Source of the DNA: Styela clava
Taxonomy: Eukaryota
Direction: 5' to 3'
Length of the DNA stretch: 64,000 nucleotides
Assembly: GCF_964204865.1 (NCBI RefSeq)
Contig: NC_135256.1
Span: 11,656,001 to 11,720,000 of the forward strand
The notes beneath the pieces were generated by a model, which made no database searches, had not been told where the DNA came from, and worked only from the letters and a program-made list of their open reading frames with translations. Positions 20,823-62,817 of this stretch are shown piece by piece (within the stretch, counting starts at the first letter, position 1; the number at the start of each line of letters is the position of its first letter). Position numbers and translations under genes: made by a program.

Positions 20823-20982
20823 TGTCTCCAATTCCAGACTGTATTATCTTATAAATTTATATAAACAGAACTTTTGAACTTATCTAGTGCAAAGGAGTAA
20901 AACTGTATTATGAACTATTGAATAATATAAGAAAACCATTTCATTCTGCAAAAGTTTTTTGTGAGTAATCCGAATCACCAGT

Positions 20983-22753
20983 ATGCAGCAAGGTGAAGCA
21001 ATGAAATGGCACATGCCGGGATGGCGAATTGAGCAGCGGTTTTCGAACAATACACTTATAGGAAATTGGTGTGAAGAAAGAAAACAGGTTAGTTACTCAA
21101 ATATGAATCGATGCATTCAACGCAATATCGAATATTCAAATTCTGCATTCTTACAGAATAATTTTTGTTTTCAGTTTCAACGAGGAACACATTCAAATAC
21201 AAGCACACATTTAACTGATTTTCGTTTGTATAAAAATCACAAGCCTGATGTTACAATTCGACGTTCTGCATTAATGAGAAATGAAGGACTCCGCAAAGAA
21301 AATCTTTTCACTCATCATGGGAAAACGTACGACCTAACATTCACAGTTGCATGGGCACTTACTGTACAGAGCATTGCCAGTTCAGCTATAAGGAAGATTA
21401 TTGTACACTTGTATATGTTATATTACCTACATCACAACAGTCACAGCAGACATTTTATAATTCAAACTTTTCATGAATTTTACAATATTTTTGAGAAATC
21501 ACTGTAGCGATTAAAGCTCATGTTAGATCATTAAGCCGTAAGTACGCTTTCATAACTTTTTCAGATACAGCAACAACTTAATATCATGGTATGATGAACA
21601 ATTTAATAAGAGAATGAGGGATGAAAATGACAGGCTACCAGATGTACGTAAATGGGATGGCCACAAACTCGCCTGGGCTCCTGAAAGATCTGATTATCCT
21701 ATGCAAGGTAAATTAAGATATACCATCATTTTTATGGAATATCGCTGATAGGCTCTAGGTAAAATCTGGGGATGAAGTATTCATTAACTTTAGAGAATTG
21801 CCCCTTATCAACCGTGAAAATATATAGGTGATCTTTTTTCTACCTATATATTGGATGAATTGAACTGAAATACTAAAATTTAACAATACTTTTGTGACAA
21901 AAAATGGTTGGACAAGAAGTTTAAACTATTCTCTAAAATAATGACTAGCAATGAGACTTCATAAAAATTTTGGATTACAGGAAAACCAACAAACTATGGT
22001 CTTCACAGTAAAATGAAGGACAAGTGGATTGCAGAATTAAAAGCAGAACGGTCCGGGCATTACACTACAGATTATGGTCAAGCATACCAAGGACATCCTT
22101 CAACCGCTTTCCCTAGAAGATTTGCTTCTGCACCCAAATATCTTTCAAGCCATTTTAATCCAATCAGTAAGGTAAGTTGAGTTAAATATGAAATTGTATT
22201 ACCTGAAGATTGATGTTTTACTATACTGTAGGGCTGGGCATTTTCGAATACCCGATGATTTCAGAATCAAATCGAATATTTTTTTCGAATCGAATCTTGA
22301 GATATATATAATTGTATGTAACTTTCTTGTTGTATTGGTTGGGTCCTCCAGACACGTAACTTACTGGAAACGTGAATTGCTGAACATTCACACACAATAA
22401 AAAACAGGTTTTCATCAATAACTCCACTACAGAAAAGAGTCTTATTTCAGAATAGCGTTAAAAAAATATGGCTTCAATGAAAAAAATTGAGAAATTTACC
22501 TAGACCATTGGCAGAGAGGGAAAAAACAAGATGGTGGCGATTCAAAATGCCCAGCCCCACTATACTGGTATTATGTTGTAAACTACCGGTAACTTTATCT
22601 TTGTTTCCCAAAATACATGGATATTAGTACTAACCAAGTAACAAACACTCTCACTTTTTCCTCATCTAGCTAAACAAAGATCTTTGGTTGAGAAGAACTC
22701 CATTCAACATGGCACCGGAATATCCACCAACAGTAACACCACCTTCTTCCTGA
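20983..22753 (+). CDS. CFAP107: Cilia- and flagella-associated protein 107 (C1orf158), 5 exons
   Basis: Exons 20983-21087, 21175-21326, 21565-21707, 21981-22171, 22670-22753 give PGWRIEQRFSNNTLIGNWCEER...HKPD...EGL...THH...LISWYDEQFN...RKWDGHKLAWAPERSDYPMQGKPTNYGL, matching remembered CFAP107 motifs. Confidence 0.88.
22229..22559. mobile_element. hAT-type MITE in CFAP107 intron 4
   Basis: TIRs TAGGGCTGGGCATTTT / AAAATGCCCAGCCCCA; 8-bp TSD CTATACTG (22221-22228, 22560-22567). Confidence 0.9.
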
Positions 22754-29803: not shown

Positions 29804-31418
29804 ATGGCAACAGCCGTAACATACGAATTTCAATGCAAACATTTTGGTTTCACTGATGTCACACCGAAGCATTTTTACGAGTCTCAGGTATGACTGTTAA
29901 GGAATTGACACGAATAGTTTAGCTAATATGCTGTTTCATTGGTGTAACTAATATCTAATTTGTATCTGCAGTCTGCACAAAAATTGTTTACAATTCTTGA
30001 GACTCATGTTATGCTAACAGGGTTTTCGCTTTACTCTTGTGCTGTTTAATATAGTTCGAGGATTTTACAGAACAATTACATATAAATACTTTTTCCAAAT
30101 CTTGAGTATATCAATTATGTCAATGTAATGTATCTATTGTATCGCTGTGATTATGCCCATATGAAATCAACTGGACTCTGTCGTTAAATGAGTTTATACA
30201 GTAAGACATATGATGTGATTAGAAAGTGTTTATGGAAAAATCTGCTCAACTTGGATTACCTCGCAATATATGCCACATAGTGCGATTTTACCAACAGTTT
30301 TTTATGGTAAAGATTTTTCACATTAAACAACTGCCATCTAAGACTAATGTTATGGGGAACCCCGTGAATTACCTTGAAATGGCGAAGGGTACAAAAATCT
30401 TCTTGTGCCCAATTATCCCCCGTGGGATTCTAGGAGTGATACCGTCGTTATAACCACATTCTCGTATATGAATATTTACAGCTTACCGATGAAGTGTTAC
30501 TAATTACTCAGACTTGAATATCATTTTCATTTTTGCAGTGGACAGAAAGAAAGGAATATTTTGTCGTCTATCGAGCGATTATGTTTCTATATTGTTTGAT
30601 TTGGGCAATTTATGACACCAACTTTTGCGTTAGTTCATATTCTGGGTACTATATTACCCATCTTTCGAGCTGGGGAGAGTGGACCCTCGTTGTTCACTTC
30701 GGATTGGCATTAGCCGTCTCGATGTTTGGACTAATTCAAGATTCCGATTTTTGTTTTAAAAACAACCTCGAACGAACAATCTGTTGTGGTAATGGGAACA
30801 CTTGTCAAATAAGTGAGTTGAAATCAAAAACCACTATTTTATTTCAACCTAATAAAGTTTAGAAACACAAATAACAAAATGATTATCTTTATTCCAGATG
30901 ATATTAAATGGTTCCACAATTTATGCTGGGTGGTAATGACAGCAGCGTCCGGAGTTTCTTATATTGTGACCATATCATATTGGTGCTTCTCCGATAACAG
31001 GATGTATTCAATCGCCGTGAATACTCACCAACATATCATGAATTCTGTGTTGATGACAATGGATCACCTACTAAGCAGAGTGCCTACTCGATATCTTCAT
31101 TTTGTTTATGTTTCTTTGTATGGGGCAGTGTATACTTTGTTTACCGTGATACTACACCTAATTGGCATTCGACCTATGAAATACTCAGGCACACTAGACT
31201 GGACAAAGAGTCCTGAAATTTCAATAGTAGTTTCATTAGGTTTAGTCACGGTAGGGGCTTGCGTGATTCACTTTATCACCTTTACCATTTTTAAACTAAG
31301 AGATTTGACTCATTATAGACTTCGCACGTCTCAGACTAAGAGTGCGTTATTTAGCGACACGTCTAGCCATTCGAATAAAGATATTAATGCTAACGAAAGA
31401 TCACGAATTTTGCAATAA
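29804..31418 (+). CDS. Protein rolling stone-like multipass membrane protein, 3 exons
   Basis: Exons 29804-29887, 30539-30812, 30898-31418 give MATAVTYEFQCKHFGF...FYESQW...YR...YITHLSSWG...VTISYW...HIMNSVLMTMD...P.RYLHFVY..LYG..Y..F...YSGTLDW. About six hydrophobic segments, as in the rolling stone / FAR-17a-like family. Confidence 0.85.
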
Positions 31419-31597: not shown

Positions 31598-32871
31598 ATT
31601 TAAAATTAATAATTATTACATTTGTTGTGCATTTACGTTATAGCTTGTTGTTTTCACACTGACTAGATTTGTGATTATGATGTCATAATTGCTCGTTGGT
31701 TTTACCGTAAATATATACGTTGCGCGCGCTTATTGTATTTTGGAGTATACGATACCACATTTTGCTGTATAATGAACTGTAATATATATATTTGTTTATT
31801 AGTTATATGGCAATACGCAAGACATCACAGCCTTGGCTTGAAGGATGAAGTTTTAAAATTTGCAAGAAATTACGTCTTATAATAATCTTTAAGATATTCG
31901 GTGGAATTGTACTAATGTAATGATGCAATATTAATGTTGAAAATATTTCCTTTTTTTAAAAATTATTTCAATAGCTCGAAAATAAATAAAGCAAATGCCT
32001 AGACAAGGGAGCACATATCAAATATATGTTAGCCGTAGCGTAAAGAACCATGCACAACCAATTGAATGTTGGGCAAAAGAGCAATTCTGAAATGTTTTTG
32101 TATGGAGGTGAATTTGAACGTGTGTCCAAGAAATATAAAAACATTGAAATATACCCAAGGTAAAAATATCGGGCCCTGTAGGACTCAGAGTGATTCGAAA
32201 AGAAGTACTAGTCTTCTAGCGACTTCGTACATCTTTAAATATTGAAAATAGAATGGTTCATAAATTGCAAAGAAAAGTGATTTTTTTTCTCAACAACTAC
32301 AATAAACTCAAAGCCTCCAACAATAAACGCAAAACAGATAAAATGAGGATGACCTAAAAAACGAGTTGAATTTCTAGCGCAGTCTGAAGTTCTAACCCTG
32401 ACTGGATAATTAGTAATTTTCTTATTTTGAGCGTTGGCTGGGGTTTTGTACACAAGATAGATAGATACACAAGATATCATTAAAATAATAAACAAACACA
32501 TTTTTGTTTTGCATGTACTTTAGACACTTGATTTAACTGAGAGAGACCATGCCTCGAAAAGTTCATTTTGACAATGCTGGGATGCGAATCGGGGCCGTGT
32601 AATAGCTTGTATATTCTTGTACAGGAAGGCTTAGATATAGCATGACACGGCCATACCTCTTTTAAACAAAGGTGATACTTTCGATCATAGATTTACGCCT
32701 TTGTTGGCAATAACAAATACAACAGTTAGTGAACCTATTCTATGCACGACACATCCAATGATATGTACACTGTGTACTGCCAATATAAATGTGCGATCAA
32801 AAAAAACATGCACATTATTAGCAGTTGTCACTGGCTTCACTTCTAGGCAGGCGTACATCTTGTTACTGAAC

Positions 32872-33630
32872 ATGATGTTTCACTTAGTAATACTGAATTT
32901 TATTGTTGTTACTGGCACAGTAGGGCTTGATCCAAAATGCTCAAGTGAATGGGACACAACCAACTCGTTCCTCAACATCGCTTTGGACTGGAGCAGTAAC
33001 GTCGCACAAAGTGACAGCGACAAGACAAATATGGAATCAGACAATAATAAGATTCTCCAAGCGTCATCTAGTCCTACGTGTTCTGCTCATATGGATGAGA
33101 AATCATCACTAGTCACCATGACTTTAGATTGGGAAAGTCCAGATAATGCTATGATTGACGAAGATACATTGTCAGTAAATTTCGATTCGCAAATTAAGGA
33201 AATTGAAAACCGTTTAAATCATGTTGAGCAGGGTTGGTTGGTAATTGACAAAAGACGTTTTTGGTTTGGTGCACATGAAATGACTTGGCAAGCGGCATAT
33301 TATGAATGTATGTATAAAGGTGGAAGACTCCTCTCGAAGGGAATGCGTGATCACGAGGAAAAGGGCGAAATTATATCCATAGTTCAACTTAAGAATGCAG
33401 TTTATTGGATTGGGCTGAATGATATTAAAAACGAAGGCACATGGATATGGTCAGATGGGACGTACGCTAGTTCCGACGAAATACCCAGACGCAGTAAACG
33501 GAAGTTAATACGAGAAGATTGTGCAACTTTATTTTGGCAGCGTGAAAACAAAAAGAAACTGCGGGGTGCAGTTGAAGATCAAATATGCTCAAATAAATTT
33601 CGAGTCATATGCGAAAAAGATTCATTATAA
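32872..33630 (+). CDS. Secreted C-type lectin domain protein (intronless), paralog A
   Basis: Signal peptide MMFHLVILNFIVVTGTVG, short coiled coil, then a CTLD: MTWQAAYYEC..KGGRL, YWIGLNDIKNEGTWIWSDG, EDCA, C...FRVICEK. The true start is likely ATG 32872, by comparison with paralog B. Confidence 0.88.
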   Translation: MMFHLVILNFIVVTGTVGLDPKCSSEWDTTNSFLNIALDWSSNVAQSDSDKTNMESDNNKILQASSSPTCSAHMDEKSSLVTMTLDWESPDNAMIDEDTLSVNFDSQIKEIENRLNHVEQGWLVIDKRRFWFGAHEMTWQAAYYECMYKGGRLLSKGMRDHEEKGEIISIVQLKNAVYWIGLNDIKNEGTWIWSDGTYASSDEIPRRSKRKLIREDCATLFWQRENKKKLRGAVEDQICSNKFRVICEKDSL

Positions 33631-38745: not shown

Positions 38746-39660
38746 TCAGTTTCTTACTGAAAACATGCACAGAATTTTTTTTAGTTTGAGGGGGACATTG
38801 CCCCAAACCTGTACACCCATATACTTCAGAGATGTTTTGCCCACCTTAGTGGACACTTGTGGAGTAAAGAAAACCTTGTTCCTTTGGGACCCGGTGCAGT
38901 AATTTTGCACTTTTTTTAATGGGGTGAAATAATGTTTAAAGACAGGAGGAACAAGGTCATTTTCATATCGATGCATGAACTTTGCAATTTTTAGCGTAAG
39001 CATATCAGACAGCTGTGGGAGTTGATACTGGTAGAGCAGCAAATTAGTTACACTAACTTTCTCTGCAAATGCCATGCATCCCAAAACTTTATTTTGCAGA
39101 ACTTGGATTGGCTGTGAGGAAGACCTTGTTGCTGAGCCCCAACTTAGCAGGACATATTGCAAACGCGAGTGAAATAAACTGAAATATAATAATTTAAGTG
39201 TTTTAATATTCAAAATATGCCTTAACCTGTAAAATATTTCAAGAGTTTGCGATAATTTCTTGAATAAGTGGACAATATGTGACTTCCAACTCAGTTTGTC
39301 ACCAATTCTAATTCCCAAATATTTAATGGTTTTTGTGTGTTCCATAATGTAACTGCCATTTCAGCTCTAAGTGTGGAAATAGCGTGCTTTTTATTACAGA
39401 ACAACATAAATTTGGTTTTGGAATAATTTAGGGAGAATTTGTTTGCTTTAAGCCAGTTATCAACCTTCTGGAGTTCATGATTCACCACAGTTTGGAGTTC
39501 TGAACCACAGGATGCTGATTTTAGCAGAGAGGTATCATCGGCAAACAATGTCGGATAAAATGCAGATGCCAAAGGTAGATCGTTTATGTAGCATAAAAAT
39601 AACAGCGGGCCAATCGTGGAACCCTGGGACACCACATTCAGGGACGGATTATGCCCCATT
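38746..39660 (-). pseudogene. 5'-truncated, frameshifted CR1/L2-type LINE reverse transcriptase remnant
   Basis: QGSTIGPLLFLCYINDLP, LFADDT, WLKANKFSLNYSKTKFM, KYLGI, LLYFSLFHSRLQY...WG, spread over two frames. Confidence 0.9.
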
Positions 39661-41456
39661 AGTGCCCTAAGCACTTTGGTGAACCCTGATGTGTGATTTA
39701 AAATATAAATACAATACTGTATACCACATAAGTATATTATCAATCAATAACAACACTAAAAATCCATCAGAAACAACAAAAAACACAGCGAACATTTTCA
39801 GGTCTTCTGATAATTTTGAGAAATTACTGTTGAAATTCACTGGGTTAGTATCAATAAGCTTTTGACAACACTGCCAATACCCGTCCTTGTCAACAGCTAA
39901 GGAGACATTTGATTGTAGCGGTACATCATTGAGTAAAATCGTATTTCTGCAATTTTATTTTATATCTATCCTCTTTTCTTCATTGCAGTTACAAAATAGT
40001 CAACAACTGAGCAAAATAAAGTGATATGAAATTAGTCTCTGGCATTCAAATATAAATCTGCTGCATCTCCTTAATTGAGCAAATTATTTCTGATACGTTT
40101 ACGAGTTGGAACTGCCTTGCAATCCACACCTGGTAGTATTTCCGTTGCAGCTGCATCGCAGCGAATAATAGCGTAATAATATATTAGGATCTGCACGTGT
40201 TTGTTTTGAAATATTCTGTGGAAATTCCTTCTGAAACGATAACACGAAAACAAATTCTAGCTCTTGCATATTATTTGCATCTATTCTAGCATCTTTGTTT
40301 TGTGACTTGTACATTTCACTGCTTTTTGAGAAAAAAGTTTAAAATCGCCAACCATCTGGTATCAGTGAGGGATGTCAAAATTTAATTTCCATACCAAAAA
40401 ACTCTCCCATATAAAAACATTCCCGACTTTGCCGAACACTAAAGATCTCAGAAATGCGATCGCGTAAATTTTGATGATGCCGTCACTCGTCAGTATAACA
40501 TGGGATTGAAAACAAATACCATTGGACCCAAAAAAAATTTTTGAAAAATAAATAGCCTATAGTTCTAGCGGAAACAACAATCTTTAGCCAACAAGCAATT
40601 GGTCCCATCGTTTTAAGAGGAAACAGATTTCTCTAAAACGATGAAAAAAAAACAGCAAGAAGAAAAACACGAAACTCGATTTAACAAAACGATCCATAAG
40701 TCCATTTCGTGTCTAATAAGTAATTTTGAGTGTTCATTACTAATTGATGGCCAAGATATGAATATTTTACATGATTTTGGAGATATTTCGAAAAACATCA
40801 TAAAAGAGAAGATTAACGATACCTAAATAGGAAGAATGCGAATATTTTCAAGTCTGTTCCGTCTTACCAACACTGATGCACAATTGCAAATTCAGCTATA
40901 AAAATTTCTGTGGTGCCCCCTTTTGCTTGGTGCCTTAAGCACGTGCTTATATTGTTTAATGGTTCCTTCCGGCGCTGACCACATTCATACATATTAAGTT
41001 TTCTATGACCGACACGACAAGCGAGAAGCCATGTGTATCAGTTTCAAAGGTCATTGTGAAAATAATAAATAATAATAAACTATTGCATTATAGATTTACA
41101 CGTACTTTAGATACTTGATTTAACCTAGCGAGACCATGCCAATGGAAGTTTACAGCAATATTTTGACAATGCCGGGATGCGAAATTGGGGTCGTGTATTA
41201 ACCTGTACATTTCTGTACAGGAAGGGTGAGATATATCTTGACACGGCCATGCCTCGCTAAAACAAAGTTGATGCTTTCGGTAATAGCAAATTTCGGCGAT
41301 AACAAATAGAACAGTAAGTAGCCTTATTCTATACACGACACATCGATTGTGCACTATCAATATAAATGCTCGATCGAAAAAAGCATGCACATTTTTATCA
41401 GTCGTCAATGCGTCCACTTCTAATAATATTTATCAGGCAAGACATCTTGTTACTGA

Positions 41457-42251
41457 ATGTACATCATGCTTTATTTGGTAATACTGAATTTTATTGTTCT
41501 TACTGGCGCAGTAGGGTTGGAGCCAAAATGCTCAAGTGAATGGGACACAACCAACTCGTTCCTCAACATCGCATTGGACTGGTACAGTACCGCCGTACAA
41601 AGTGGCGACGATGAGGCAAATATGGAATCAAGAAATAATACTCTTCTTCCAACGTCCTCTAGTGCTACGTGTTCTGCCCATATAGATGAAAAATCATCAC
41701 TAGTCACCATGACTTTAGATTGGGCAATTCCAAATAATGGCATGATCGACGACGATACATTGTCAGTTTCTGAACTTTCAAATGCGATATCAGATTTAGA
41801 TTGGCAAATTAAAAAAATTGAATACCGCTTGAAACATGTCGAGCAGGGTTGGTTGGTAATTGGCAAAAGACGTTTTTGGTTTGGTGCACAGACAATGAAT
41901 TGGCAAGCGGCATCTAATGAATGTAAGTATAAAGGAGGAAGACTCCTTTCGAAGGGAATGCGTAATTACAATGAAAAGAACGAAATTGTATCCATGGTTC
42001 GACTTAAGAATGCAGTTTATTGGGTCGGGCTAAATGATATTAAAGATGAGGGCACATGGATATGGTCAGATGGGAAGTACGCTAGTTCCAACGAAAGACC
42101 CAGACAAAACAGAAAAAAACGGAAAAGAAGACGTGAAGATTGCGCAACTTTATTTTGGCAACGTGGCAAAAACAAGAAACTGCGTGGTGAAGTTGAAGAT
42201 CAAGAATGCTCTAAAGAATTTCGAGTCATATGCGAAAAACATTTATTTTAA
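41457..42251 (+). CDS. Secreted C-type lectin domain protein (intronless), paralog B
   Basis: Highly similar to 32872-33630, including flanking DNA (41100-41450 resembles 32510-32870). CTLD YWVGLNDIKDEGTWIWSDG...EDCA...CSKEFRVICEK. Confidence 0.9.
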   Translation: MYIMLYLVILNFIVLTGAVGLEPKCSSEWDTTNSFLNIALDWYSTAVQSGDDEANMESRNNTLLPTSSSATCSAHIDEKSSLVTMTLDWAIPNNGMIDDDTLSVSELSNAISDLDWQIKKIEYRLKHVEQGWLVIGKRRFWFGAQTMNWQAASNECKYKGGRLLSKGMRNYNEKNEIVSMVRLKNAVYWVGLNDIKDEGTWIWSDGKYASSNERPRQNRKKRKRRREDCATLFWQRGKNKKLRGEVEDQECSKEFRVICEKHLF

Positions 42252-42294: not shown

Positions 42295-42670
42295 ATCTTA
42301 ATATTCCATATCGAACCATGCCCAAGGAATACATTTATACCTATGTACAAGGAAAGTGAAAAAGATTTGCAAGATATATTAACGTAGAGCATACTATATA
42401 TTTAATATTAATATCATCATATTATTATTATCATCATGTGCATCGTTATTTAAAAATTAAAATATTCAATCAGAATATTCATTTGATCTTACTATTCCAA
42501 ATCGAACTATGTCCGAAGAAAACATAAATACCTAATATAAAGAAAGTGAAAAAAGTATGCAAGATATATTAACGTAGAGCATATTGTATATTTATTATTA
42601 ATATCATCATATTATTAGTATCATCATATGCATCGCTATTTAATAAATATAATATTTAACCAGAATATTT
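42295..42670. repeat. Diverged tandem duplication (2 x ~192 bp) downstream of lectin B
   Basis: atctta.tattcca.atcgaac...gcaagatatattaacgtagagcat... at 42295 and 42487; only one copy follows lectin A. Confidence 0.8.
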
Positions 42671-43072
42671 GATTATAAATATAATATTTAACCGATTGTT
42701 TGGAACTGGTTATAACATTCATAGGACATGTGCATGTATGGAACTTTCGCCAGAAAACTTTAATTACCATCCTTGTCCTCAAAAGTTCATTGACTTTTTC
42801 CTAAGAAGCTAATTTGAACCCGGCCAAAATTGTTGCAGCTTTAACGCGATTTAGTACAACCATTGTGCTTGCAAATGCACCAATCTAACGTAAGTAGGAT
42901 TGAACCCGAACTTCCGCATTATAGTCCGGCAGATAAGGGGACCTTTTTGGCCCAAGTTTGATTTCAGACATAAAGTTTTTTTTATTTGTGATTATTCATC
43001 TTGGGGTCATTGCCAATCATTTCTACATGGGTTTGGAGTTCGCAGCCTTGAGCAATTTTTTTACGGCTCGAT

Positions 43073-43570
43073 ATTTGTATTAGTGTTTTTCGTCAAACCT
43101 GTGCATCATAATGACGCACAACCTTAACCATAACCTGTTACAATACTACGTTCAGGTTGTACGCAATCTTGGTGCACAAACTACGCAAGCACCAAATTTA
43201 CTAGGAAATAAAATCAATAACTTTTAGGTATTTGTTGAGATATTGGTATTAGTGTTTTTCTTCAAACTTGTGCATAATAATGACGCACAACCTGAACCAT
43301 AACCTGCTACAATACTTTGTTCAGGTTGTGCGCAATCTTGGTGCACAAACTACGCAAGCACCAAATTTACTAGGAAATAAAATCAATAACTGTATTTGTT
43401 GAGATATTGGTATTAGTGTTTTTCTTCAAACTTGTGCATCATAATGACGCACAACCTGAACCATAACCTGCTACAATACTTTGTTCAGGTTGTGCGCAAT
43501 CTTGGTGCACAAACTACGAAAGCACCAAATTTACTAGGAAATAAAATCAGTAACTTTTATGTATTTGTTG
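43073..43570. repeat. Tandem array of three ~165-bp units, each carrying a MITE-derived hairpin
   Basis: Units tattagtgttttt...gcacaacctgaacc...gttcaggttgtgcgcaatcttggtgc...agcaccaaatttactagg; related to the 31495 MITE family. Confidence 0.85.
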
Positions 43571-43703
43571 AACCCAGCTTTGGGTCGCGACCAATATAGA
43601 GAGAAATACTGCTGAAACGTACGCGTAAAATAAAGAGTACTATTTCAAAATACCCTCTATTGTTGCAATTAACAATACAAGCCTGCTAATGCAGTCGCCA
43701 GTG

Positions 43704-44223
43704 GTTCAAGTGGATATACATCCGGTGGAGAACAGTCAATTATTTGTTAGCGAGAATTGTTATGCAGAGGGATGATCACGACGACGCAGTGAAAGATAAT
43801 TATATCACGAGAACAAGAATGAGAAAATTTGAGCATCGCTTTCTTGTCTCACACAATACAATATCAGGTACAATTGAAGATTTTCAAGACTGGAAATATT
43901 TATAACATACTTGCAGTCCAACAGCTAATATTTTCCATGCTTTCGTACGGACAAAGTCCAAAGTTCAAGTGGATATACATCCGGTGGAGAACAGTCAATT
44001 ATTTGTTAGCGAGAATTGTTATGCAGAGGGATGATCACGACGACGCAGTGAAAGATAATTATATCACGAGAACAAGAATGAGAAAATTTGAGCATCGCTT
44101 TCTTGTTTCACACAATACAATATCAGGTACAATTGAAGATTTTCAAGACTGGAAATATTTATAACATACTTGCAGTCCAACAGCTAATATTTTCCATGCT
44201 TTCGTACGGACAAAATCCAAAGT
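43704..44223. repeat. Near-perfect direct tandem duplication, 2 x 259 bp
   Basis: gttcaagtggatatacatccggtggag...ttcgtacggacaaa at 43704 and 43963. Confidence 0.95.
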
Positions 44224-44439: not shown

Positions 44440-47358
44440 TTACATTAACTTTAATTTCAGTGATTCACGGAGCTCGTTCAAGTAGTTGGTGTCCGGGTAT
44501 CCATTGCTGAAATTAAAACATACCTGGAGTTGGAGCAACCAAAAATTACACATAATATCCTAAAGAAGTATACTGACTTGTCCAGCCCCCCGTCAATACT
44601 GGTCTTATGCGGTATGTCTTTCCATGTAATAGTTCCGCACCCATCACTCTGCTTCTCAATCTTAAATATCATCCCGGCATTAAATGCCAGTCGGAGATAA
44701 TCAATAAGTTGTATTACGCCATCTTCTATTGGTAAATAGGCGGTGATTTTTTGAGCTGAATAAGGGATTCCCTGCATATTGAAATATATATATTGCATAT
44801 TAAAAAATTATAAGTCCGCCTTCTTCTCAAACTGTCTTTGCACAAAAGTTACCTCAAAAGTTCCAGCAGGAAAGCTATAGTTAATAACATAGTAGTTACA
44901 CCACCCAAACTCAGTCGTATAAAGTTCTGAAGGATGGATATTCATTTGACCACCAGATATTCTATTCAGCACCGTTATGTGTTGGTTTTGTTCTAATTTA
45001 CCTGAAAAGTTGAAAAATATTTCATTGAATTGTCAAACCGATTAAGAAATGACACATCAACTTTGTGTTTGAATGGTATAGTGAATTGTTCATAAATAGG
45101 ATTATCGTGAATTATTTTCCTGGTTCTATAATAAACAATATTTAAAAACCTGTATGAATATTTCGTGTGGTTTCCGAGAATGCGTTTCCAGATCTAAACA
45201 CCGAAGGTAGAGTCGTTGCTGTTGTCGTGTTGTATGTTGTAGACGTATTTCTGAGATTAAATTGGTTGGGAATTGTGGTTACCTGAGTTGTGGCACTTAA
45301 TGAAGTAAATTCAGATTGACTTGTACTACTAATCGTTGAAATTTCTGCTCCAGAAACGAATCCAGACTGAATTGTACTTTTAGGGGCTGAAAATCCTGTT
45401 CCAAAGCCGGATGATCCAGGTTGACTTGTACTTTTAGTCGCTGAAAATCCTGTTCCAAACGCGAATTCAGATTTACTTGTACTTTTAAGGGCTGAAAATT
45501 CTGTTCCAAAACCGAATCCAGACTGACCTATACTTTTAGGCACTGAAGATCCTGTTCCAAAGCCTGATCCAGATTTACTTGTACTTTTGGGCGCGGAAAA
45601 TCCTGTTCCAAGACAGAATCCAGACTGACCTATACTTTTAGGCACTGAAGATCCTGTTCCAAAGCCTGATCCAGATTTACTTGTACTGTTGGACGCGGAA
45701 AATCCTGTTCCAAGACCGAATCCAGACTGACCTGTACTTTTAGATGAAGATCTTGTTCCAAAGCCGCATCCAGGCTGACTTGTACTTTTAGGCGCTGAAT
45801 ATCCTGTTCCAAAACCGAATCCAAACTGACTTGTACTTTTAGGCGCTGAATATCCTGCTGTTCCAAAACCGAATATGGACTGACCTGTACTTTTAGGCTC
45901 TGAATATCCTATTCCAAAGCTCCATCCAGACTGACTTGTACTTTTAGGCGCTGAATATCCTGTTCCAAAACCGAATCCAGACTGACTCGCAGTTTTAGGC
46001 GCTGAATATCCTGGTCCTAAACCGAATACAGACTGACCTGTACTTTTAGACGCTGAATACCCTTTTCCAAAACCGAATCCAGACTGACTCGTACTCTTCT
46101 GCGTTGAAAATCCCTTTCCAAAGCCGAATATGGGCTGACTTGTACTGCCTGACTTGGTTTCATCCGTATTTATCCGACGAAATAATTCATCAATAAGCAA
46201 ATCTTTGCATTCATGAGATTCGGTAACAAGAGTATTGCATCGCACATTTTCACGTAAAAAATCGACAGAAAATTGTTTGAGATCGATCATCCTAATCAAC
46301 TTCGGAAGTGTTTTCTTTCTCATCAAAACATCATGGTTGATCCACATCATTGCTGCCTGCCACCTGTTAGAGCTAGATAGTGAGTGAATTCCTTCTCCTG
46401 ATTTTACCACAAAAACAATCTCTTCGTCACTGAGACTGCCGAACTCTTCTAAATTCATCATATGTTGCAAATTTCCTCTAATGAATCGATGAATTTCAAG
46501 TTTGATTTTACTCCAAATATCGATTTCATTCATCTTATACTTTTGCAATAGGCTTTTCAGCGCAAAGCAAGTATCAATTTCTAAATGCTTCTCAATATCG
46601 GAAAACAGATTGAAAACCACAAAACTCTCCACTGGCTTGTTACCATTCACTAGTGGATCTTTTAAAATGGTCTCCAGAACAAAACGACACGGAAATTTTT
46701 TTAAATTCAATGCATGTACTAGTTCTAAAATATGTTGTTGGTGCGCATCATTTGAGCCCTGCACCCACGTTATTACTGCTTTCCAAAGTGCTTCATGATT
46801 TGCACGTGAAACCTTTATACAATTTGCCAATGTTGCTTTGTTGATAGATGGGAATAATTCATCGGAAATGACGGCTTCGAAATTGGTGGTTACAACTTTC
46901 AATGCGGCCTGTTTTACGTCGCCTCGACTGTACAAATGTGCTAAGTTTAATACATGCAAGCAATTATTCAAAAAAATATTTGATTTCAGATACTGAAAGC
47001 AATAGTCTGTCAACGACAATAGTTGTAAAATATCCGACGCGTTTAAAATATCTCGTAAGGTATCCATCTTCAAATCAACCGTCCCTAAGTACATGAACTG
47101 AATGCACTGAGTGATATCAACAGCGGTCACTCCTGTCATATTAACAAACCCATCAGTAGCCTCCTTCATGTTGTTGAATAGCATGCTCTCAAAATAAGCA
47201 GAGGAAGATATCAATACATTTCGATGAACTAGAAATGATTCATTCTCCACGTTTATTTTGAAATCGCAAAGAACTTTGTTTTCCCTTAACCTAGCAAGGG
47301 AAGTCATCAAACGGTCAGCTTGGTCTGTTTTAAGGGAGCCTGTAATTTTAGGATTCAT
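44440..47358 (-). CDS. BTB-BACK-BACK protein with FG-rich repeats, predicted to splice to a C-terminal Deltex C-terminal (DTC) domain
   Basis: Large exon 47358-45150: BTB (LCDFKINVENESFLVHRNVLISSSAYFESM...MKE), two BACK-like regions and a repeat tract. It joins in phase 1 (ACA G|gt...ag|GT AAA) to exons 45001-44853, 44771-44578 and 44506-44440, which encode GGQM...INYSFPAG...GIPYS...TAYLP...LRLAFNAGMIFKI...ITWKDIPHKTSIDGG..NGYPDTNYLNEL. Confidence 0.75.
45310..46146 (-). repeat. Coding minisatellite: about 16 x 51 bp encoding 17-aa STSQSGFGFGTGYSAPK-type repeats
   Basis: Read directly from the 741-aa ORF; the DNA unit ...cctgttccaaa.ccgaatccagactgac.tgtactttta... recurs. Confidence 0.95.
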
Positions 47359-47419
47359 AGTAAACACTGAAACAAAAATTGTATGAGAGGTCTATGGTGG
47401 CCCATCGGTGTCACGTGTA

Positions 47420-53422: not shown

Positions 53423-53886
53423 CTCACCACATTTGTTTTTTTGCTGAAAGTTTTAGCTGCTCCACCAAAAATTTTCATTGATATGGTGTAGGCTAATTCT
53501 GATTTTTGAGATAAAGATCACCCATCAGTCAATTTATATTCTTGCCTACCGATTAGATCACACAGCATAAATCCTCACACTGCAACTTTTTATGATCCTT
53601 TCTTCCTGAAAATATACATATCTCTTATAAAAATCTACATTCCTTGACAAATCATTACTGTATTGGGTACCTATAAGAACATTTACAACTGTGGCGGGAC
53701 TGGAATTGCCCTTTTTTTTATTGTTTTGTATTTTATTTATATTTAGTGTCTAGTTATTGCATATGCATTGGTGTGTAGAGTCTGAGCCCTAATTCGGCCG
53801 ACAGTTGGTTTCAGTTACTCGACTCCAACCGCCACTGCATATGTGAACTGTGTTGCGGATTCGCAGTGCCATTCTTCTTGCTTCTG

Positions 53887-56658
53887 TATTGTGTTACAAT
53901 GTTTGGAGTATATTAAAATGGAATATCCGGGTTATCTGGAGATCTATACTGACGGTTCAAAATCTGCAACTCGCTGTGGTGCTGCCTTTTTTATACCAGA
54001 TTGTGACGTTTCGAATAAATTCCGCCTCGATCCATTGTCTACTTCCTACTGTACGGAATTATATGCCATATATCGAAGTTTGATATGGATATCACAAAAT
54101 AGGCCTTCAAAAGTATTAATATTGTGCGATTGTCTTTCTGCATTGGAAAGCATACAGAATATTTGGGATGTTAAGCATTTTTTATCGACAAAAATACAAC
54201 TACTTCATTCTATTATTTGTCACACGACTGATATCAAGTTTATGTGGATACCAGCACATATTGGAATTAGCGGTAATGAGGCAGTGGATCGACTGGCGAA
54301 AGACGGAGCAAATGGAACTGTCATCAATGCCTGAATGCTGTTCTCCAACGGTCATTGAAAGAAGCTAAGACATTGTGCAAGCAAACATGTCTTGCAAAAT
54401 GGAATTTAACATACCAAGCTAACGATACTGCAAGCCATTAAAAGAACTTTCGAACTTATATAGCCCAAAAGACTGTCTATTTTAATTTTTCCCGCCAAGA
54501 AGAAATAGTATTTTTTCGGCTTCAAACTGGACATATTAGACTCAACTATCATTTATTTAAAATAGGGCTACTTCCCACAGGGCACTGTAGTCGATATGAC
54601 ACAAATGAAACTGTTTCTCATTTTATTTTATATTGTCCCAAGTATAATACCTTACGATGCGAATTAAGACGTTAAGCAGCAAAAATGAATGTGCCCTGGG
54701 AAATTATTTGTGTTTTCAATGTTCCTGATTTGATTCCATTTATTATTAGCTTTGCTATATCCACCAAACGAGAGTTGTGAACCTATTTTATTGTATCATA
54801 CTGACTGCTCTTTTTGATATTTGACGCAAAAGACCCAGTTGTCAAAGACGCCATTAACCCTTTTACCTTACCTTCTTGCTTCTGCTGTCAATGGGTAAGG
54901 ACCGTATTTTGTCGCTAGCCCAAAAGACTGTCTATTTTAATTTTTCCCGCCAAGAAGAAATAGTATTTTTTCGGCTCCGAACTGGACATATTAGACTCAA
55001 CTATCATTTATTTAAAATAGGGCTACATCCCACAGGGCACTGTAGTCGATATGACACAAATGAAACTGTTTCCCATTTTATTTTATATTGTCCCAAGTAT
55101 AATAACTTACGATGCAAATTAAGACGTGAAGCAGCAAAAATGAATGTGCCCTGGGAAATTATTTGTGTTTTCAATGTTCCTGATTTGATTCCATTTATTA
55201 TTAGCTTTGCTATATCCACCAAACGAGAGTTGTGAACCTATTTTATTGTATCATACTGACTGCTCTTTTTGATATTTGGCGTGGCGTAAATGGAATTTAA
55301 CATACCAAGCTAACGATACTGCAAGACATTATAAGAACTTTCGAACTCATATAGCCCAAAAGACTGTCTATTTTAATTTTTCCCGCCAAGAAGAAATAGT
55401 ATTTTTTCGGCTTCAAACTGGACATATTAGACTCAACTATCATTTATTTAAAATAGGGCTACTTCCCACAGGGCACTGTAGTCGATATGACACAAATGAA
55501 ACTGTTTCTCATTTTATTTTATATTGTCCCAAGTATAATAACTTACGATGCGAATTAAGACGTTAAGCAGCAAAAATGAATGTGCCCTGAGAAATTATTT
55601 GTGTTTTCAATGTTCCTGATTTGATTCCATTTATTATTAGCTTTGCTATATCCACCAAACGAGAGTTGTGAACCTATTTTATTGTATCATACTGACTGCT
55701 CTTTTTGATATTTGACGCAAAAGAGCCAGTTGTCAAAGACTCCATTAACCCTTTTACCTTACCTTCTTGCTTCTGCTGTCAATGGGTAAGGACCGTATTT
55801 TGTCGCTAGCCCAAAAGACTGTCTATTTTAATTTTTCCCGCCAAGAAGAAATAGTATTTTTTCGGCTTCGAACTGGACATATTAGACTCAACTATCATTT
55901 ATTTAAAATAGGGCTACATCCCACAGGGCACTGTAGTCGATATGACACAAATGAAACTGTTTCCCATTTTATTTTATATTGTCCCAAGTATAATAACTTA
56001 CGATGCGAATTAAGACGTGAAGCAGCAAAAATGAATGTGCCCTGGGAAATTATTTGCGTTTTCAATGTTCCTGATTTGATTCCATTTATTATTAGCTTTG
56101 CTATATCCACCAAACGAGAGTTGTGAACCTATTTTATTGTATCATACTGACTGCTCTTTTTGATATTTGGCGTGGCGTAAATGGAATTTAACATACCAAG
56201 CTAACGATACTGCAAGCCATTATAAGAACTTTCGAACTCATGTAGCCCAAAAGACTGTCTATTTTAATTTTTCCCGCCAAGAAGAAATAGTATTTTTTCG
56301 GCTTCAAACTGGACATATTAGACTCAACTATCATTTATTTAAAATAGGGCTACATCCCACAGGGCACTGTTGTCGATATTACACAAATGAAACTGTTTCC
56401 CATTTTATTTTATATTGTCCCAAGTATAATAACTTACGATGCGAATTAAGACGTGAAGCAGCAAAAATGAATGTGCTGGGAAATGGGAAATTATTTGTGT
56501 TTTCAATGTTCCTGATTTGATTCCATTTATTATTAGCTTTGCTATATCCACCAAACGAGAGTTGTGAACCTATTTTATTGTATCATACTGACTGCTCTTT
56601 TTGATATTTGACGCTAAAGACCCAGTTGTCAAAGACGCCATTAACCCCTTTACCTTAC
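53887..56658 (+). mobile_element. 5'-truncated I/Nimb-clade-like LINE (RNase H + C-terminal Cys/His motif) whose 3' end is tandemly amplified five times
   Basis: IYTDGSKS...TELYAI...ILCDCLSAL...FMWIPAHIGISGNEAVDRLAK; RLRTGH...C...ETVSHFILYCPKY repeated five times; 3' tail TTTTACCTTACCTT; 13-bp TSD CTTCTTGCTTCTG at 53874-53886 and 56659-56671. Confidence 0.88.
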
Positions 56659-57134: not shown

Positions 57135-57560
57135 TCAATCTTGACGCGAGACAGCGCGCACAGAACACAGAAAATTGCAATACGTCGCGCCAACGACTAA
57201 CATACCGTCGCACGATGATTTTCGAATCAATAATCTGTCAGAACCAAGGCGAGCGTGACGGCGAATCCAACATAGGGCGAAAATTTCCGGAGTTACATGG
57301 CGTTGGTCAAATACATATCGCATTTTTATAAGTTTGTACAAATAGTTCTCATCGCTTATAGCAAAATATCTATCACCTCCTAAATTTGAAAACACCCACC
57401 CTAAAATGAAAACTGGGTAGCTAACCAATTGCAAATGCCCCGCAGTACAGAGAAAGTCAACTCGTCCTTCACCTGTTTACGCCTGTACCGTATGATATCG
57501 GTAGTCTGTTGCAGGAAACAGAGCGCGTGTATCTTTCGCTGCGCATTTTCATGAATCGTG
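57135..57560. promoter_or_regulatory. CpG-enriched, probably bidirectional promoter region
   Basis: Locally CpG-rich, directly upstream of the DM9-SOCS ATG. A minus-strand donor GA|GTGAGT at about 57134 suggests a non-coding first exon of a leftward transcript. Confidence 0.45.
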
Positions 57561-58919
57561 ATGGCCAAGCGTTCGCGCCGCAACGTTTTTGGAAATCGGA
57601 CTGCCGCCAATGATGAGATTAAAACTGGTTCTTATCCGCTGGTTACTGGTGATTATCAATGGGTACCAGGACCTGAATCCGATGAGCAATTCCCCGATAA
57701 TATGGTATGCGGTGGAAAGTTGGAAACCGGGCAATTTGCTTACATTGGACGTGCAGACGTTGAAGATCAAACCCCGTCCGGCTTTGTTTTGAAAGAAACG
57801 CGAGAATTACATGTTCCCTATGGTACCTCGGAGCACCGTCTACGTAACTATGATGTTTTGGTTGTCAAGGATCAAAATATTCTGGAATGGCAGGAGTGTG
57901 AAAATGGTCGTCCTCCCTCTACCACGTGTTGTATACCACTAGAAGTGGGTGGAAACTTTCGTGAAAGCATGCAAATTGGTCGAACCTGTACCCCTTTGAT
58001 TGAGGGTCACACATGGAATGAAATGCAGCTAGAAGTATCTCGATGGGTTAACACTGATAATAATGTGCATAGGTGAGCATCACTAGATTGCAGTGTCTCT
58101 GTATAATAATTTTATGTGTAGTGTACACCTGTTATTAAATATTGTTATTGGATCAAACACCAAAATGTGAAGCAATATGTATACCGTAAGTATATTTTGA
58201 TTTTCCCGCAAAAAAATCAATGAACACACAGAAGATTGGGAAAATCGGGGAAACTTGCAAAACCTTTATAAATGTTTAATACGGTTCCATTACATTTGAA
58301 CCCACGTACATTTGAACCCATGACAATTGCACCTGTATGCTATTGCAACTATGGATTTTTTTTTGTTTCACGGATAGTTAAACCCATACTAACCCTAACC
58401 CATGGGTTTTAGCACCCGCATATAGATTGAACCCGTGGATATACGCATGGGTTCAAATGTACATGGGTTCAAATGTACAGTCACCGTTTAATACATGTAA
58501 ATATACATGCGCCAGTTTACTTCCTTACTAAAGAGTTTATTGTACAGTGAATAAACTTTGTATATGGTTGTTAGAATCATTCTTTGTGTTTAAATAACTG
58601 AAAGCTTCATAGGCAACCGCATCTAGTATAACCATTTGGTTAATGGAAAAAATAATCTTCATTCATTACACATTGTTTCAGATTGGGAAAAATTCATCGG
58701 AATCACCAATGTCTATATATACCATATCAAGGACGGGAATACATTTTTAGACGCCACGAAATGCTGATGCTTAAAACTTCACCAGGATCTTTAAAAAGGA
58801 TTTGTCGTTGGTCTATCTTAAAATATTTAGAACACATCAGGTCCAAATCCAGCAAAACAATTGATAGCTTGCCACTACCTAACAAAATTAAGGGATATCT
58901 GAAGCACACAGACAAGTGA
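57561..58919 (+). CDS. DM9-repeat (DUF3421) protein with a C-terminal SOCS box, 2 exons
   Basis: Exons 57561-58072 and 58682-58919 (AG|gt...ag|A). Two DM9 repeats: YQWVP...PDNMVCGG...AYIGRA...GFV...LHVPYGTSEH...YDVLV, and LEW...GRPP...VGG...IGR...LGKIH...LYIPYQGREY...EML. Then a SOCS box PGSLKRICRWSIL...IDSLPLPNKIKGYL. Confidence 0.85.
58283..58485. mobile_element. Foldback MITE with a 9-bp TSD in the DM9-SOCS intron
   Basis: TACATTTGAACCCA / TGGGTTCAAATGTA repeats in inverted orientation; TSD GTTTAATAC (58274-58282, 58486-58494). Confidence 0.85.
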
Positions 58920-59839: not shown

Positions 59840-62817
59840 TCAGCGGAAGCCTCTTCCTGGTCCCCACTTGATATCTTGCATTCCTTGAAATTGACTTTTC
59901 AATCTGTTGTTATCTGCCCATTCTGAGTTCAAGTGAGCGTTGTCTTCTGATTCGTCAAGTTTCTGGAAAGAATTGATCCTCATAGTTGGTAGTGTGGCAT
60001 GGCACAGGTTCACAAAAAAAAAGAGAACTGTGTCTGTGTGTATGTAATGCCCTACTGGTTTTAATTAATTTCCAGATACATTGGACTTGTCTAAGGGTGG
60101 ATGGTAAAAAAAGAAACCTGCATGTAATCATTCATTAACACCAGTTAGTTTTTAGTCTCTTAGGTGAGATATCAGCACTATTATCTTCCATATTGAGTAT
60201 GTGTAATTTTGCTACCAGGGTAAGACATCAATAACCACATTGGGTATGTCATGACAGAATTTAAAAAATGCCATATAAAATATATTTACCTTAAGTTCTT
60301 CTTGCCTTCTGTATGCATGTAACATCATTTGTTTCTTTTGTTCTTCTGATACAACTGGCTCCCTTCCAGGTGGGCCAGTACCTTTTTTCTGCAGTTTAGC
60401 CACAATTTTAGTTTTATCATTATTTCCCACATAATCTTGCAGTTTCTTTCCAGGTAATAGTTCTTTACCAGCCCACCAAAGCGTTCCTTTGTCTTCTGGG
60501 ATTACTTGTAACGATGCTTGAGTTCCTAAACGTAAAAAAGACAATTCCTATAGGTTGCAATTTGGCTCATCGTAACAATGTTAACTCACTAGGTTAAATT
60601 GGGAAGCTAATTCTTACAAAATAGGCTATTTAGTTTTAATACTGTCAAGTGTCAATCTAAAATTTATGACTGATGGAACATGTTTTCTGAAGCAAACAAC
60701 AGTTAATCATTGCTCACATTTGGAGAATTTATTTAAAAACAAAATATTATTATACACATACCTGTTTGGGAAGCTGCCTACAAAAAGAGATACAATAGCA
60801 CTTTGATTTCACAACTTACCTGAAAGTTCTTCTTGATTATCTAGCTCCAATTGTATAGGATCATGTGGTGGTAATCCCATTGGATACACAATCATCACTG
60901 CACCACGTAGCTGTCCTAAAGCATCTTTTACTATTTCATTTGTCATCAGTGTGTTTGCTTCAACCAGTTTCTGTCAATTTGAGATAAGATTTGAAGTTTT
61001 CAAGATACAAAAAACCCTCCTGCTGAGATTGGTTCAAGTCGTTTTGTAAATTATGTAAATACGGTTATGGCTGGGAACAGTTAACCGATTTTAGATGGTT
61101 AACAGTTACGATTAATTTTAACTGTTAACTGAAAATTCAGGTACAAATCATCTTCATAATGTACAATTTCTTCAAAAATGATTACGCCATCGCAAATTTA
61201 TCTCCTGTGGCGTTTAATTCAAAAGAATATCACTAACTATATTGGTAAGGACCCAATAAATATGAAACATAATTGAAGTACCAATATCACTGATTGTAAA
61301 AATTTGACAATGATGAATTCACAATCAGTTTTCAGTGGAAATATATCGTTTACAATTTTATTGCAAAATAGTATATTCAACAAGTGCGCGGTGTTTTTCT
61401 TTATGATATCTCAAATTAGCATTGGAAGTCTAAAACTGGAAATTTGTCATATATAATGACATTCAATAACGGATTTGGGTTTTACTAAAATACTTCCATA
61501 TGCCCATTGCATATCTCTTGCAGCTGAGAGATCACGGAACTATCTTCATTTGTGAATAATTTTGTTCAATACCGGGATAAGATCACCCAGAATTGTTCTG
61601 TAACCATTGTGACATAACAAGCTAAAATTATAAATTATTACGTCAAACGTCCTGCTGCGGTTAACCGGTTAATTTTTCCCTGAAATTTCAAGCCCTAGTA
61701 AATAGGAATAGAATGTCTCAAAATCATTTTAAATAAACCAAATTTTGTTTGGCTGTAATCTCTGACAACTTGTTGAAAGATGCTCATTTGGTGAAGTCAA
61801 ATTTATTAATGCATTTAAAAGATTACAATTGTAGTGAAAAATATTCTAAGACAAAGATGCCCCATTTACCTTGCTAATACTTGCTTTTGCGTCTTTCACA
61901 GTCTTAGTCAAAATCTCCGCCATTTTTGTATTCGGTGCTTGACCATTTCTTCTGCCAATATCATCCTTACAAAATACGGCTCCACCACTTGGTATGCACC
62001 TTATGAACAAATATATGACAGGGGATAAAGCTCCACAAACATTTTTCACAAATAATTTCATATCAAATGAAACCATCGCTTCACTTACTTTTCCACCCAT
62101 TCATCCTTCAACTTTAAATCGACTATTTGATCATCCGTCAATCCCTGCATGTTAGGTGGAAGTGTTGTGCCATGTTTTGCAAGAAATTCCATCTCTGAAA
62201 TAAGCGAAAAACATTTTTATATCATTGTATACCCCTGTCAATTGGCAAATAATTGTTGGGTTTTCAATTTTCCTGGTTTCTTTCTCAATTTTTAAATTTC
62301 CAATTGATGATGACGAAATTTGTTGTTTTCCAAACTAACGTATATTTTACAATTTTGATTATTGACTCTATAACACATGCTGGAAGCTAATGATCAATAT
62401 TACTGCTACATCTCAAAAAAATGTAACATAGCAATGCGGATATCTTATTTTAATATGAGTAGTTGGTATAATTTAACAGATTACTAAACTCATAAAATCA
62501 GACATTTGAACCATGTGAAAGTTGCTATAAAAACAAACAACAGTGAGTTTGAATCTGATCATACAACTCATTCTGGCACAATTGAAATACACAGTTTTCG
62601 ATTTTTCAGCAAGAAGTTAACTAATTTCACAGAAATATATTCACTTGATAATATAAAACATATATCATACATCCATACCCTGGCATATTCTATCAATTTT
62701 CAGACGTGCATTGTAAATATATATTAGCTTCGATAACAATTCTTCAATATCCACCGCCACCGCAGTTTCATACAGAAATTGACTTTCATCTCCATGTTTG
62801 ATATGTATGCGAACCAT
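59840..62817 (-). CDS. CFAP298: Cilia- and flagella-associated protein 298 (C21orf59/Kurly), 6 exons
   Basis: Exons 62817-62679, 62194-62089, 61999-61870, 60970-60820, 60525-60290, 59962-59840 give MVRIHIKHGDESQFLYE...HGTTLPPNMQGLTDDQI...PSGG...KDDIGRRNGQAP...LRGAVMIVYPMGLPPHDPI...LWWAGKEL...GPPGREP...AYRRQEELKKL. Confidence 0.95.
61063..61697. mobile_element. hAT-type MITE in a CFAP298 intron (inverted relative to the 52741 copy)
   Basis: Reverse-complement similarity to 52741-53422; ends in GCCCTA; near-perfect TSD GTAAATAC / GTAAATAG. Confidence 0.8.

Follow-up and report, generated by a model that had tools for sequence, protein, structure and literature searches.

Can a DTC domain that has lost both its RING partner and its catalytic residues still act on ADP-ribose, and if not, what might it do instead? 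The question is raised by LOC120328352 of the ascidian Styela clava. RING-DTC is described as the shared core of the DELTEX family (PMC13658767; bioRxiv 10.64898/2026.04.23.720386), and the DTC is treated as RING-bound, with a strictly conserved His/Glu pair (PMC7615817, PMC10810221, PMC13658767, bioRxiv 10.64898/2026.04.23.720386). A preliminary description of this DNA recognized a DTC domain with replacements at the catalytic positions, and proposed that loss of the RING came with loss of catalysis, leaving a domain repurposed as a binder or decoy.

Gene structure and domain organization

LOC120328352 is a minus-strand gene with four exons that splice to 2,619 bases, and their translation is identical to the 872-residue RefSeq protein XP_039250750.2 (P0005). 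The introns are all GT-AG, with lengths of 148, 81 and 71 bases. The window, meaning the whole 64,000-nt stretch of DNA that was analyzed, has a GC content of about 35%. The coding exons are:

45150..47358, minus strand: coding exon 1, with the ATG, BTB, BACK 1, BACK 2, repeat tract and linker (residues 1-736), ending in phase 1
44853..45001, minus strand: coding exon 2, with the first DTC strands; the QxxxHPxPG loop that comes next in canonical DTCs is absent
44578..44771, minus strand: coding exon 3, the DTC core with I795, W836, P840, H841, K842 and T843
44440..44506, minus strand: coding exon 4, with N852, GYPD, the last helix containing S866, and the stop codon

The splice sites are based on the match to the RefSeq model and on gap-free alignment to solved DTC structures. 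Other readings of intron 3 were considered (retention, other donor/acceptor pairs), and only 44577/44507 yields both the RefSeq protein and a gap-free alignment. This last intron (44577..44507, minus strand) splits the peptide from which the preliminary description was made, which corresponds to residues 836-870. The domain had been placed at 44440..44771, and a minus-strand DTC is indeed located there, but this interval covers only exons 3 and 4, whereas the DTC also takes in exon 2 (44853-45001).

A search with exon 3 returned P0005 at 100% identity and an earlier, 820-residue version of the protein (P0006) at 97%. Word-index searches, run on exon 3 and on residues 737-872, found these two versions of the LOC120328352 protein and nothing else; wider relatives were gathered by HMMER and by a profile. 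When the family DTCs described below were compared with the 64,000-nt window by tblastn, LOC120328352 was the sole locus among the matches listed.

XP_039250750.2 consists of a BTB domain, two BACK domains, a disordered tract of 17-residue repeats and then the DTC. The N-terminal features are:

46978..47292, minus strand: BTB domain (residues 23-127), Pfam E = 2.5e-20
46675..46962, minus strand: BACK domain 1 with 3-box helices (residues 133-228), Pfam E = 5.1e-18 over 2 stretches; its fold matches KLHL11/KBTBD2 in CUL3 complexes
46162..46551, minus strand: second BACK-like helical domain (about residues 270-399, approximate limits), the second Pfam BACK stretch; helical, with pLDDT mostly 70-87
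45308..46146, minus strand: 16.4 copies of a 51-base unit encoding a Gly/Ser/Phe-rich 17-residue repeat, predicted to be disordered

A BTB domain followed by a 3-box/BACK dimerizes and binds CUL3-RBX1. By sequence, the BTB-BACK half is closest to gigaxonin (E = 3.9e-24), KLHL3 (5.4e-24) and KLHL11; by fold, it is closest to chains of KBTBD4, KBTBD2 and KLHL11 solved with CUL3. Both sequence features of such CUL3 adaptors are present, namely the BTB followed by 3-box/BACK and the hydrophobic-x-Glu motif. The latter is M64-K65-E66, which aligns with F130-S131-E132 of KLHL11, residues that contact CUL3 from the α3-β4 loop (PMC3597819), and the equivalent of Glu 66 is a Glu in 36 of 37 BTB-BACK-DTC rows.

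No Kelch family was detected in XP_039250750.2 at E ≤ 0.1, and residues 399-748 have a pLDDT under 50 over most of their length, which predicts disorder. The repeat tract within this region is particular to the LOC120328352 paralogue. It contains 21 FG dipeptides, compared with 0-2 in 35 other BTB-BACK-DTC rows, and is 53 residues shorter in P0006 than in P0005.

The DTC fold is retained without its catalytic residues

Residues 754-870 match the Pfam DTC family with an E-value of 5.7e-18, and exon 3 by itself matches it at 9.2e-08. In a phmmer search of the PDB, residues 737-872 found DTX3L (3pg6, E = 4.3e-10), DTX2 (6y22, E = 4.5e-08) and DTX1, and the motif region aligned to the solved structures with no gaps. 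The predicted model of the domain has a pLDDT of 88.7 from a 45-row alignment and superposes on 3pg6 with a Z-score of 15.3 (r.m.s.d. 2.7, 124 aligned residues), while the next unrelated chain scores 4.2. Against DELTEX structures the Z-scores are 15.3 and 13.6 and the Foldseek E-value is 1.7e-08; a search of the ESM Atlas returned DTC clusters and nothing else. Thus, the domain is predicted to have an intact DTC fold, in a model whose alignment is rich in canonical DTCs and so favors the canonical result.

The alignment to the solved DTCs places the following replacements:

44610..44612, minus strand: P840 (CCG), in place of the catalytic His (DTX2 H582, DTX3L H707; the first His of IHHK)
44503..44505, minus strand: N852, at the site of the aromatic before GYPD that stacks on adenine (DTX2 H594, DTX3L Y719)
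44461..44463, minus strand: S866, in place of the catalytic Glu before the last Leu (DTX2 E608, DTX3L E733)
44745..44747, minus strand: I795, where DTX2 has the diphosphate-binding Arg (R535); most members of the Styela family have Phe here

The first three had been named in the preliminary description, with DTX3L H707, Y719 and E733 as their counterparts. Both the residues and the numbering prove right (PMC11460948, PMC10810221), and neither the catalytic His nor the catalytic Glu is retained on a proper alignment. The W, HKT, GG and GYPD motifs named as retained are present as well. The fourth loss, that of the R535 equivalent, was overlooked in the preliminary description and emerges from the residue count along the DTX2 alignment.

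Among the ADP-ribose contacts R535, W578, T585 and the aromatic at 594, two of four are present: the adenine-reading residues W578 and T585 remain as W836 and T843, with I795 and N852 at the other two sites. The S567/S568 phosphate loop is two residues shorter and carries two acidic residues, with Q827 and S828 at those places, so that S828 may be the counterpart of S568.

A RING is likewise absent. No Pfam RING family was detected in XP_039250750.2 at E ≤ 0.1, a RING profile scored 0.2 bits against 30-48 bits for most canonical rows, and there is no cysteine within the 75 residues preceding the DTC.

Consequences for catalysis and ADP-ribose binding

The catalytic pair is H582/E608 in DTX2 and H707/E733 in DTX3L (PMC7615817, PMC10810221, PMC11460948). 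Ubiquitylation of single-stranded DNA by DTX3L is abolished by the H707A mutation and impaired by E733A and Y719A (PMC11460948), and the DTX reaction fails with the RING and DTC in trans, as it needs both in cis (PMC7500938, PMC11460948). Because both catalytic residues and the RING are absent, while DTX hydroxyl ubiquitylation depends on the His/Glu pair and on a RING in cis, ADP-ribose ubiquitylation by the Styela DTC appears very unlikely, in line with the loss of catalysis first proposed. The neighboring H841 and E865 were considered as possible substitutes and rejected; DTX3L has a His and a Glu at these places too, yet H707A abolished and E733A impaired its activity.

Several of the lost residues also bind ADP-ribose. 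In DTX2, R535 binds the diphosphate and H582 and H594 are likewise binding residues; a S568A/H582A/H594A mutant built to abolish binding is defective (PMC7442474). W578 and T585 stack on or read the adenine (PMC7500938, PMC13714323), and position 594 is aromatic in every human DTX (PMC7500938). Even canonical DTCs have an affinity for ADP-ribose of only 42-95 µM (PMC13714323), which, with three contact residues lost, would leave little margin for binding. Some residual nucleotide binding is possible, since the W578 and T585 equivalents remain and S828 may stand for S568. The suggestion of a repurposed binder is therefore weakened as far as ADP-ribose is concerned, as this is not the likeliest role for a domain whose lost residues include ADP-ribose binders, but it leaves room for a binder of some other ligand or for a decoy.

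LOC120328352 belongs to a large Styela family

A profile built from ten such DTCs, scored against 7,999 candidates, recovered 99 proteins, 69 of them from Styela clava. In the current assembly, these comprise 43 rows from 42 distinct loci, a lower bound whose classes were assigned by hand from Pfam assignments: 26 have BTB/BACK, 11 a kinase and 5 another N-terminal module. Twenty-two loci lie on one contig, 17 on another, and 3 elsewhere, including LOC120328352. In every case the DTC stands at the C-terminal end, following BTB-BACK, kinase or ZU5-like modules, the last represented by three further paralogue rows with weak, below-cut-off ZU5 matches; tandem DTC proteins were also found. In the kinase paralogues, the HRD catalytic loop is present in 18 of 19 rows and DFG in all 19. 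A Logan protein (P0028), 33% identical, also has the BTB-BACK-DTC arrangement.

The pocket is altered throughout the family. We compared 77 Styela-type domains (the 69 Styela clava rows and 8 more), a redundant set that includes isoforms and two annotation releases. None has the catalytic His (Pro 69, Ser 3, Leu 2, gap 3) or the catalytic Glu (Ala 65, Ser 3, Val 2, Ile 1, gap 6). The Arg site is occupied by Phe in 70, Ile in 3, Leu in 2, Tyr in 1 and a gap in 1, and the aromatic site by Asn in 68. By comparison, Trp is kept in 74, the second His in 72 and Lys in 71, along with GG and GYPD. No domain exceeds 2.5 bits with the RING profile. Not only are the substitutions conserved, as the preliminary description had suggested checking, but so are the replacing residues themselves, although among the Styela paralogues this partly reflects shared descent (mean DTC identity 65%).

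These data support a DTC that is kept rather than decaying, because the 77 domains retain Trp, the second His, Lys, GG and GYPD, and because the two versions or alleles P0005 and P0006 differ less in the DTC (3 of 136 residues) than in BTB-BACK (25 of 400; p = 0.075). LOC120328352 is not a lone decayed copy but one of a large family with interchangeable N-terminal modules. Its own DTC, however, is a divergent long branch (length about 1.0) that has Ile at the site of the family's Phe, and since it is divergent, conclusions drawn at the family level may not hold for it. Its identity to the paralogues is 0.43 in the DTC, 0.42 in BACK 1 and 0.31 in BACK 2.

A vertebrate group with a similar pocket

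A like pocket occurs in vertebrate NID/RRM/KH proteins that end in a DTC, found in teleosts, shark, axolotl, lizards and birds (for example P0049 of Umbra, P0237 of Pristiophorus, P0242 of Ambystoma, P0244 of Anolis and P0234 of Passer), with no mammals among the matches listed. All 15 rows have Phe at the Arg site and Asn at the aromatic site, 14 have Pro at the His site, and none has the Glu. Nor was a RING detected in these rows, although several teleost members have a cysteine cluster preceding the DTC, perhaps the relic of a degenerated RING. The vertebrate proteins therefore resemble the Styela ones in the Phe/Pro/Asn pocket, in the absent Glu and in the undetected RING, but differ in having a DTX3L-like N terminus and an HPxPG-type loop.

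Sixty-six columns are conserved in 30 chosen canonical DTCs, and only six of them are missing from the ascidian and the vertebrate group alike: R535, S567, H582, E608, a Gly two before S567, and the position two before R535. As four of the six are R535, S567, H582 and E608, the loss appears targeted at ADP-ribose chemistry.

The two groups form a clade with support of 97/91 when all columns are used, in trees that are weak, being built on 111-137 columns. When 34 trait columns are removed from these same weak trees, the clade appears in 0 of 300 bootstraps and the ascidian group joins P0014, P0108 and P0041 in 228 of 300; nevertheless, an AU test without the 34 columns does not reject monophyly of the ascidian and vertebrate groups (p = 0.44).

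RING loss and His loss

The proposal that catalysis was lost along with the RING was examined across DTCs at large. The best 150 of 793 HMMER hits together with P0005 gave 201 domains, or 196 without five partial ones, in a sample biased towards Pro, as the query itself has Pro; 26 domains start too close to the N terminus for a RING call. In this set from the best 150 of 793 hits, RING-adjacent DTCs (n = 117) have His in 88 cases, Pro in 18 and another residue in 11, whereas RING-less DTCs (n = 53) have His in 8, Pro in 42 and another residue in 3. His is thus lost in 45 of 53 RING-less but 29 of 117 RING-adjacent domains, a strong raw association, and of the 96 residues other than His found here, 77 are Pro.

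Only four independent pairs fall on well-supported branches, however, and a sign test on them gives p = 1, so RING loss as the cause of His loss is unsupported by independent pairs. Nor would it be the cause of the His-to-Pro change, because Pro also occurs in the 18 RING-adjacent DTCs; Styela P0014, Patella P0048 and Dimorphilus P0149 have a RING and Pro in place of His, which shows that the His can be lost from a protein that retains its RING. This part of the original proposal is weakened.

Possible functions of the pseudo-DTC

The DTC probably has a second, unstudied job. The reading that we favor, with a confidence about evenly divided for and against, is that LOC120328352 encodes a CUL3 substrate receptor in which the pseudo-DTC takes the place of Kelch and recognizes a ligand other than ADP-ribose. 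The BTB-BACK part would recruit CUL3, and the long disordered repeat would tether the DTC. The remodeled pocket (Trp, Pro, Thr, Asn and, where the Arg was, a hydrophobic residue), or a nearby surface, would then bind the ligand, most likely a protein epitope, and the bound protein would be ubiquitylated on lysine by RBX1-E2. The DTC, which intact-kinase paralogues also carry, would then serve an immune or stress pathway as a common recognition module.

A non-catalytic DTC might instead still read the adenine end of ADP-ribose or PAR, or the end of ssRNA or another nucleic acid, and bring modified substrates to CUL3 for lysine ubiquitylation. W836 and T843 are in place for this, PAR is pulled down by human DTC domains on their own (PMC7442474), and avidity could come from BTB dimers and PAR chains. 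We nonetheless consider this reading unlikely given the missing R535, H582 and H594 equivalents, the shortened and acidic phosphate loop, the defect of the S568/H582/H594 triple mutant (PMC7442474) and the aromatic at 594 in all human DTXs (PMC7500938). Somewhat less probable again is an integrated decoy, in which the DTC would mimic a pathogen-attacked surface of DTX3L and its capture would lead to CUL3-dependent degradation or kinase signaling. Clustered loci with swapped effector modules are typical of immune families, and two contigs account for 39 of the 42 loci, with such swapped modules. A decoy would also fit the positive selection on the DTC surface of DTX3L in mammals (bioRxiv 10.64898/2026.04.23.720386), but the pocket replacements show uniformity and not diversification, the loss of a loop of canonical DTCs would make the family a poorer mimic, and the idea is without a known pathogen partner.

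That the DTC is a relaxed remnant, carried by tandem duplication and functionless in LOC120328352, with Pro an easy single-base exit from His, strikes us as improbable. The long branch of this copy, the truncated DTCs in three Styela rows (P0256-P0258) and the prevalence of Pro among non-His residues in the best 150 of 793 hits would agree with it; the open frame, canonical splice sites and confidently predicted fold would not, nor would a DTC identity to paralogues that is about that of BACK 1 and above that of BACK 2, nor alleles whose differences are sparser in the DTC than in BTB-BACK. We give least credence, and very little, to a homotypic interaction module that would link BTB adaptors to kinase and ZU5 paralogues in a death-domain-like manner. 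The constant C-terminal place of the DTC behind these modules and the existence of tandem DTC proteins would suit such a role, but the DTX4 crystal shows little DTC-DTC contact (PMC13714323).

On a broader and more doubtful view than that of the CUL3 receptor, the Phe/Pro/Asn pocket might mark a DTC subtype of its own, either passed down from the chordate ancestor or evolved anew since then, with a conserved ligand that is not ADP-ribose. Ascidians would use it as a mix-and-match sensor on CUL3 adaptors and kinases, possibly with alternative first exons joined to DTC exons that they have in common, while fish, amphibians, reptiles and birds would keep an unstudied DTX3L-like protein on the same pocket.

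Relation to known systems and implications

With the DELTEX RING-DTC E3 ligases (DTX1-4 and DTX3L; PF18102; 3pg6, 6y22, 6y3j and 6y5p), the Styela protein shares the DTC fold, the Trp, the second His-Lys-Thr, GG, GYPD and the C-terminal position of the domain. It differs in having no RING, in Pro, Ser, Ile and Asn at the places of H582, E608, R535 and H594, in a shorter phosphate loop and a deleted QxxxHPxPG loop, and in a BTB-BACK-BACK N terminus where DELTEX has WWE or RRM/KH. Judged by its sequence, it is not a DELTEX ligase with respect to RING, catalytic pair or pocket. With the BTB-BACK-Kelch CUL3 adaptors (KLHL3, KLHL11, gigaxonin and KBTBD2/4), it shares the BTB together with the 3-box and the BACK, by sequence as well as by fold, and the CUL3-contacting hydrophobic-x-Glu, but it has a second BACK, a 300-residue disordered repeat and the pseudo-DTC, and no Kelch repeats.

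In the literature outside subscription journals, we found no description of RING-less or His-less DTCs or of the Styela family. Section 5 of bioRxiv 10.64898/2026.04.23.720386 mentions unassigned DTX-like sequences, and neither 'tunicate' nor 'Styela' occurs in that section. Since database annotations already display the domain combination itself, what is new is the altered pocket, the fact that this change recurs, and the family.

A family of at least 42 loci, a vertebrate group (zebrafish-class, bird) and some RING-bearing proteins all lack the His/Glu pair, which indicates that the DTC fold is separable from ADP-ribose ubiquitylation and points to a second DTC ligand. These proteins provide natural controls for the binding versus catalytic residues of the DTC. 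Members of the vertebrate group are labelled E3 ligases in databases, and automatic names such as 'DTX3L-like ligase' would be wrong for such proteins. If the BTB-BACK half works as expected, the pseudo-DTC would be a new kind of CUL3 substrate-recognition domain.

Genomic surroundings of the DTC gene

The entire N-terminal module of the DTC gene is encoded by a single exon. A splice acceptor lies at window position 47367 on the minus strand, 9 bases upstream of the ATG, implying that the gene has an additional 5′ non-coding exon. The older protein sequence of the gene is the same in two RefSeq accessions. Shortly 3′ of the stop codon, the gene is followed by three tandem arrays, and the remainder of the window holds two C-type lectin genes, other coding genes and retroelement fragments.

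Neighbouring genes and elements in the window
13459–16893, minus strand: kinesin with a C-terminal motor, intronless
20965–21507, plus strand: CFAP107
30518–31418, plus strand: rolling stone
32641–33630, plus strand: single-exon C-type lectin gene, similar to the one at 41457–42251
38746–39743, minus strand: retroelement fragment, a frame that looks like a LINE tail and has no match in Pfam
41457–42251, plus strand: single-exon C-type lectin gene, with the DTC gene ending 2.2 kb away
42295–44223: three tandem arrays (190 × 2, 164 × 3 and 259 × 2 at 99% match)
53786–56520, plus strand: retroelement fragment, RNase H at 53786 followed by three near-identical short frames
57555–58076, plus strand: DM9-repeat protein
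60212–60547, minus strand: CFAP298

Possible module exchange and repeated DTC domains

Two proteins from the older Styela annotation, P0193 and P0194, are identical over their C-terminal 144 residues, one of them carrying BTB-BACK and the other a kinase. Their common end reflects either shared DTC exons joined to alternative first exons or tandem copies fused in the gene models. With the N-terminal module confined to a single exon in the window, swapping of first exons onto the DTC exons would be possible. Several kinase and ZU5-like paralogues (P0013, P0016, P0017, P0022 and P0025) contain short Gln/Asn/Gly/Ile/Val-rich motifs that may be akin to the RHIM type.

Related proteins can also bear two or three DTCs each, as seen in P0011, P0012, P0020, P0037 and about 40 similar matches. 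Often one DTC has His at the catalytic His site and another has Pro, and the catalytic Glu is absent from most, even where His is present. In the Styela protein P0014 (LOC120348513), RRM/NID is followed by two strongly degenerate DTCs, a RING and a last DTC; the RING-adjacent DTC has Pro at the His site and retains Arg and Tyr. P0014 might conceivably be an intermediate towards, or a source of, the Styela RING-less DTC family.

Proline at the His site in other organisms

The bacterial protein P0249 from Endozoicomonas gorgoniicola (1,254 aa, encoded on a 6.3 Mb contig) has Pro at the His site of a C-terminal RING-DTC. The bacterium is animal-associated, and this pair of ubiquitin domains is eukaryote-like. 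P0255, a WWE-RING-DTC Deltex from Hypothenemus hampei, has Phe, Pro and Asn at the Arg, His and aromatic sites, respectively, and retains Glu. Judged from this pocket sequence, some Deltex proteins of insects may lack ADP-ribose ubiquitylation activity.
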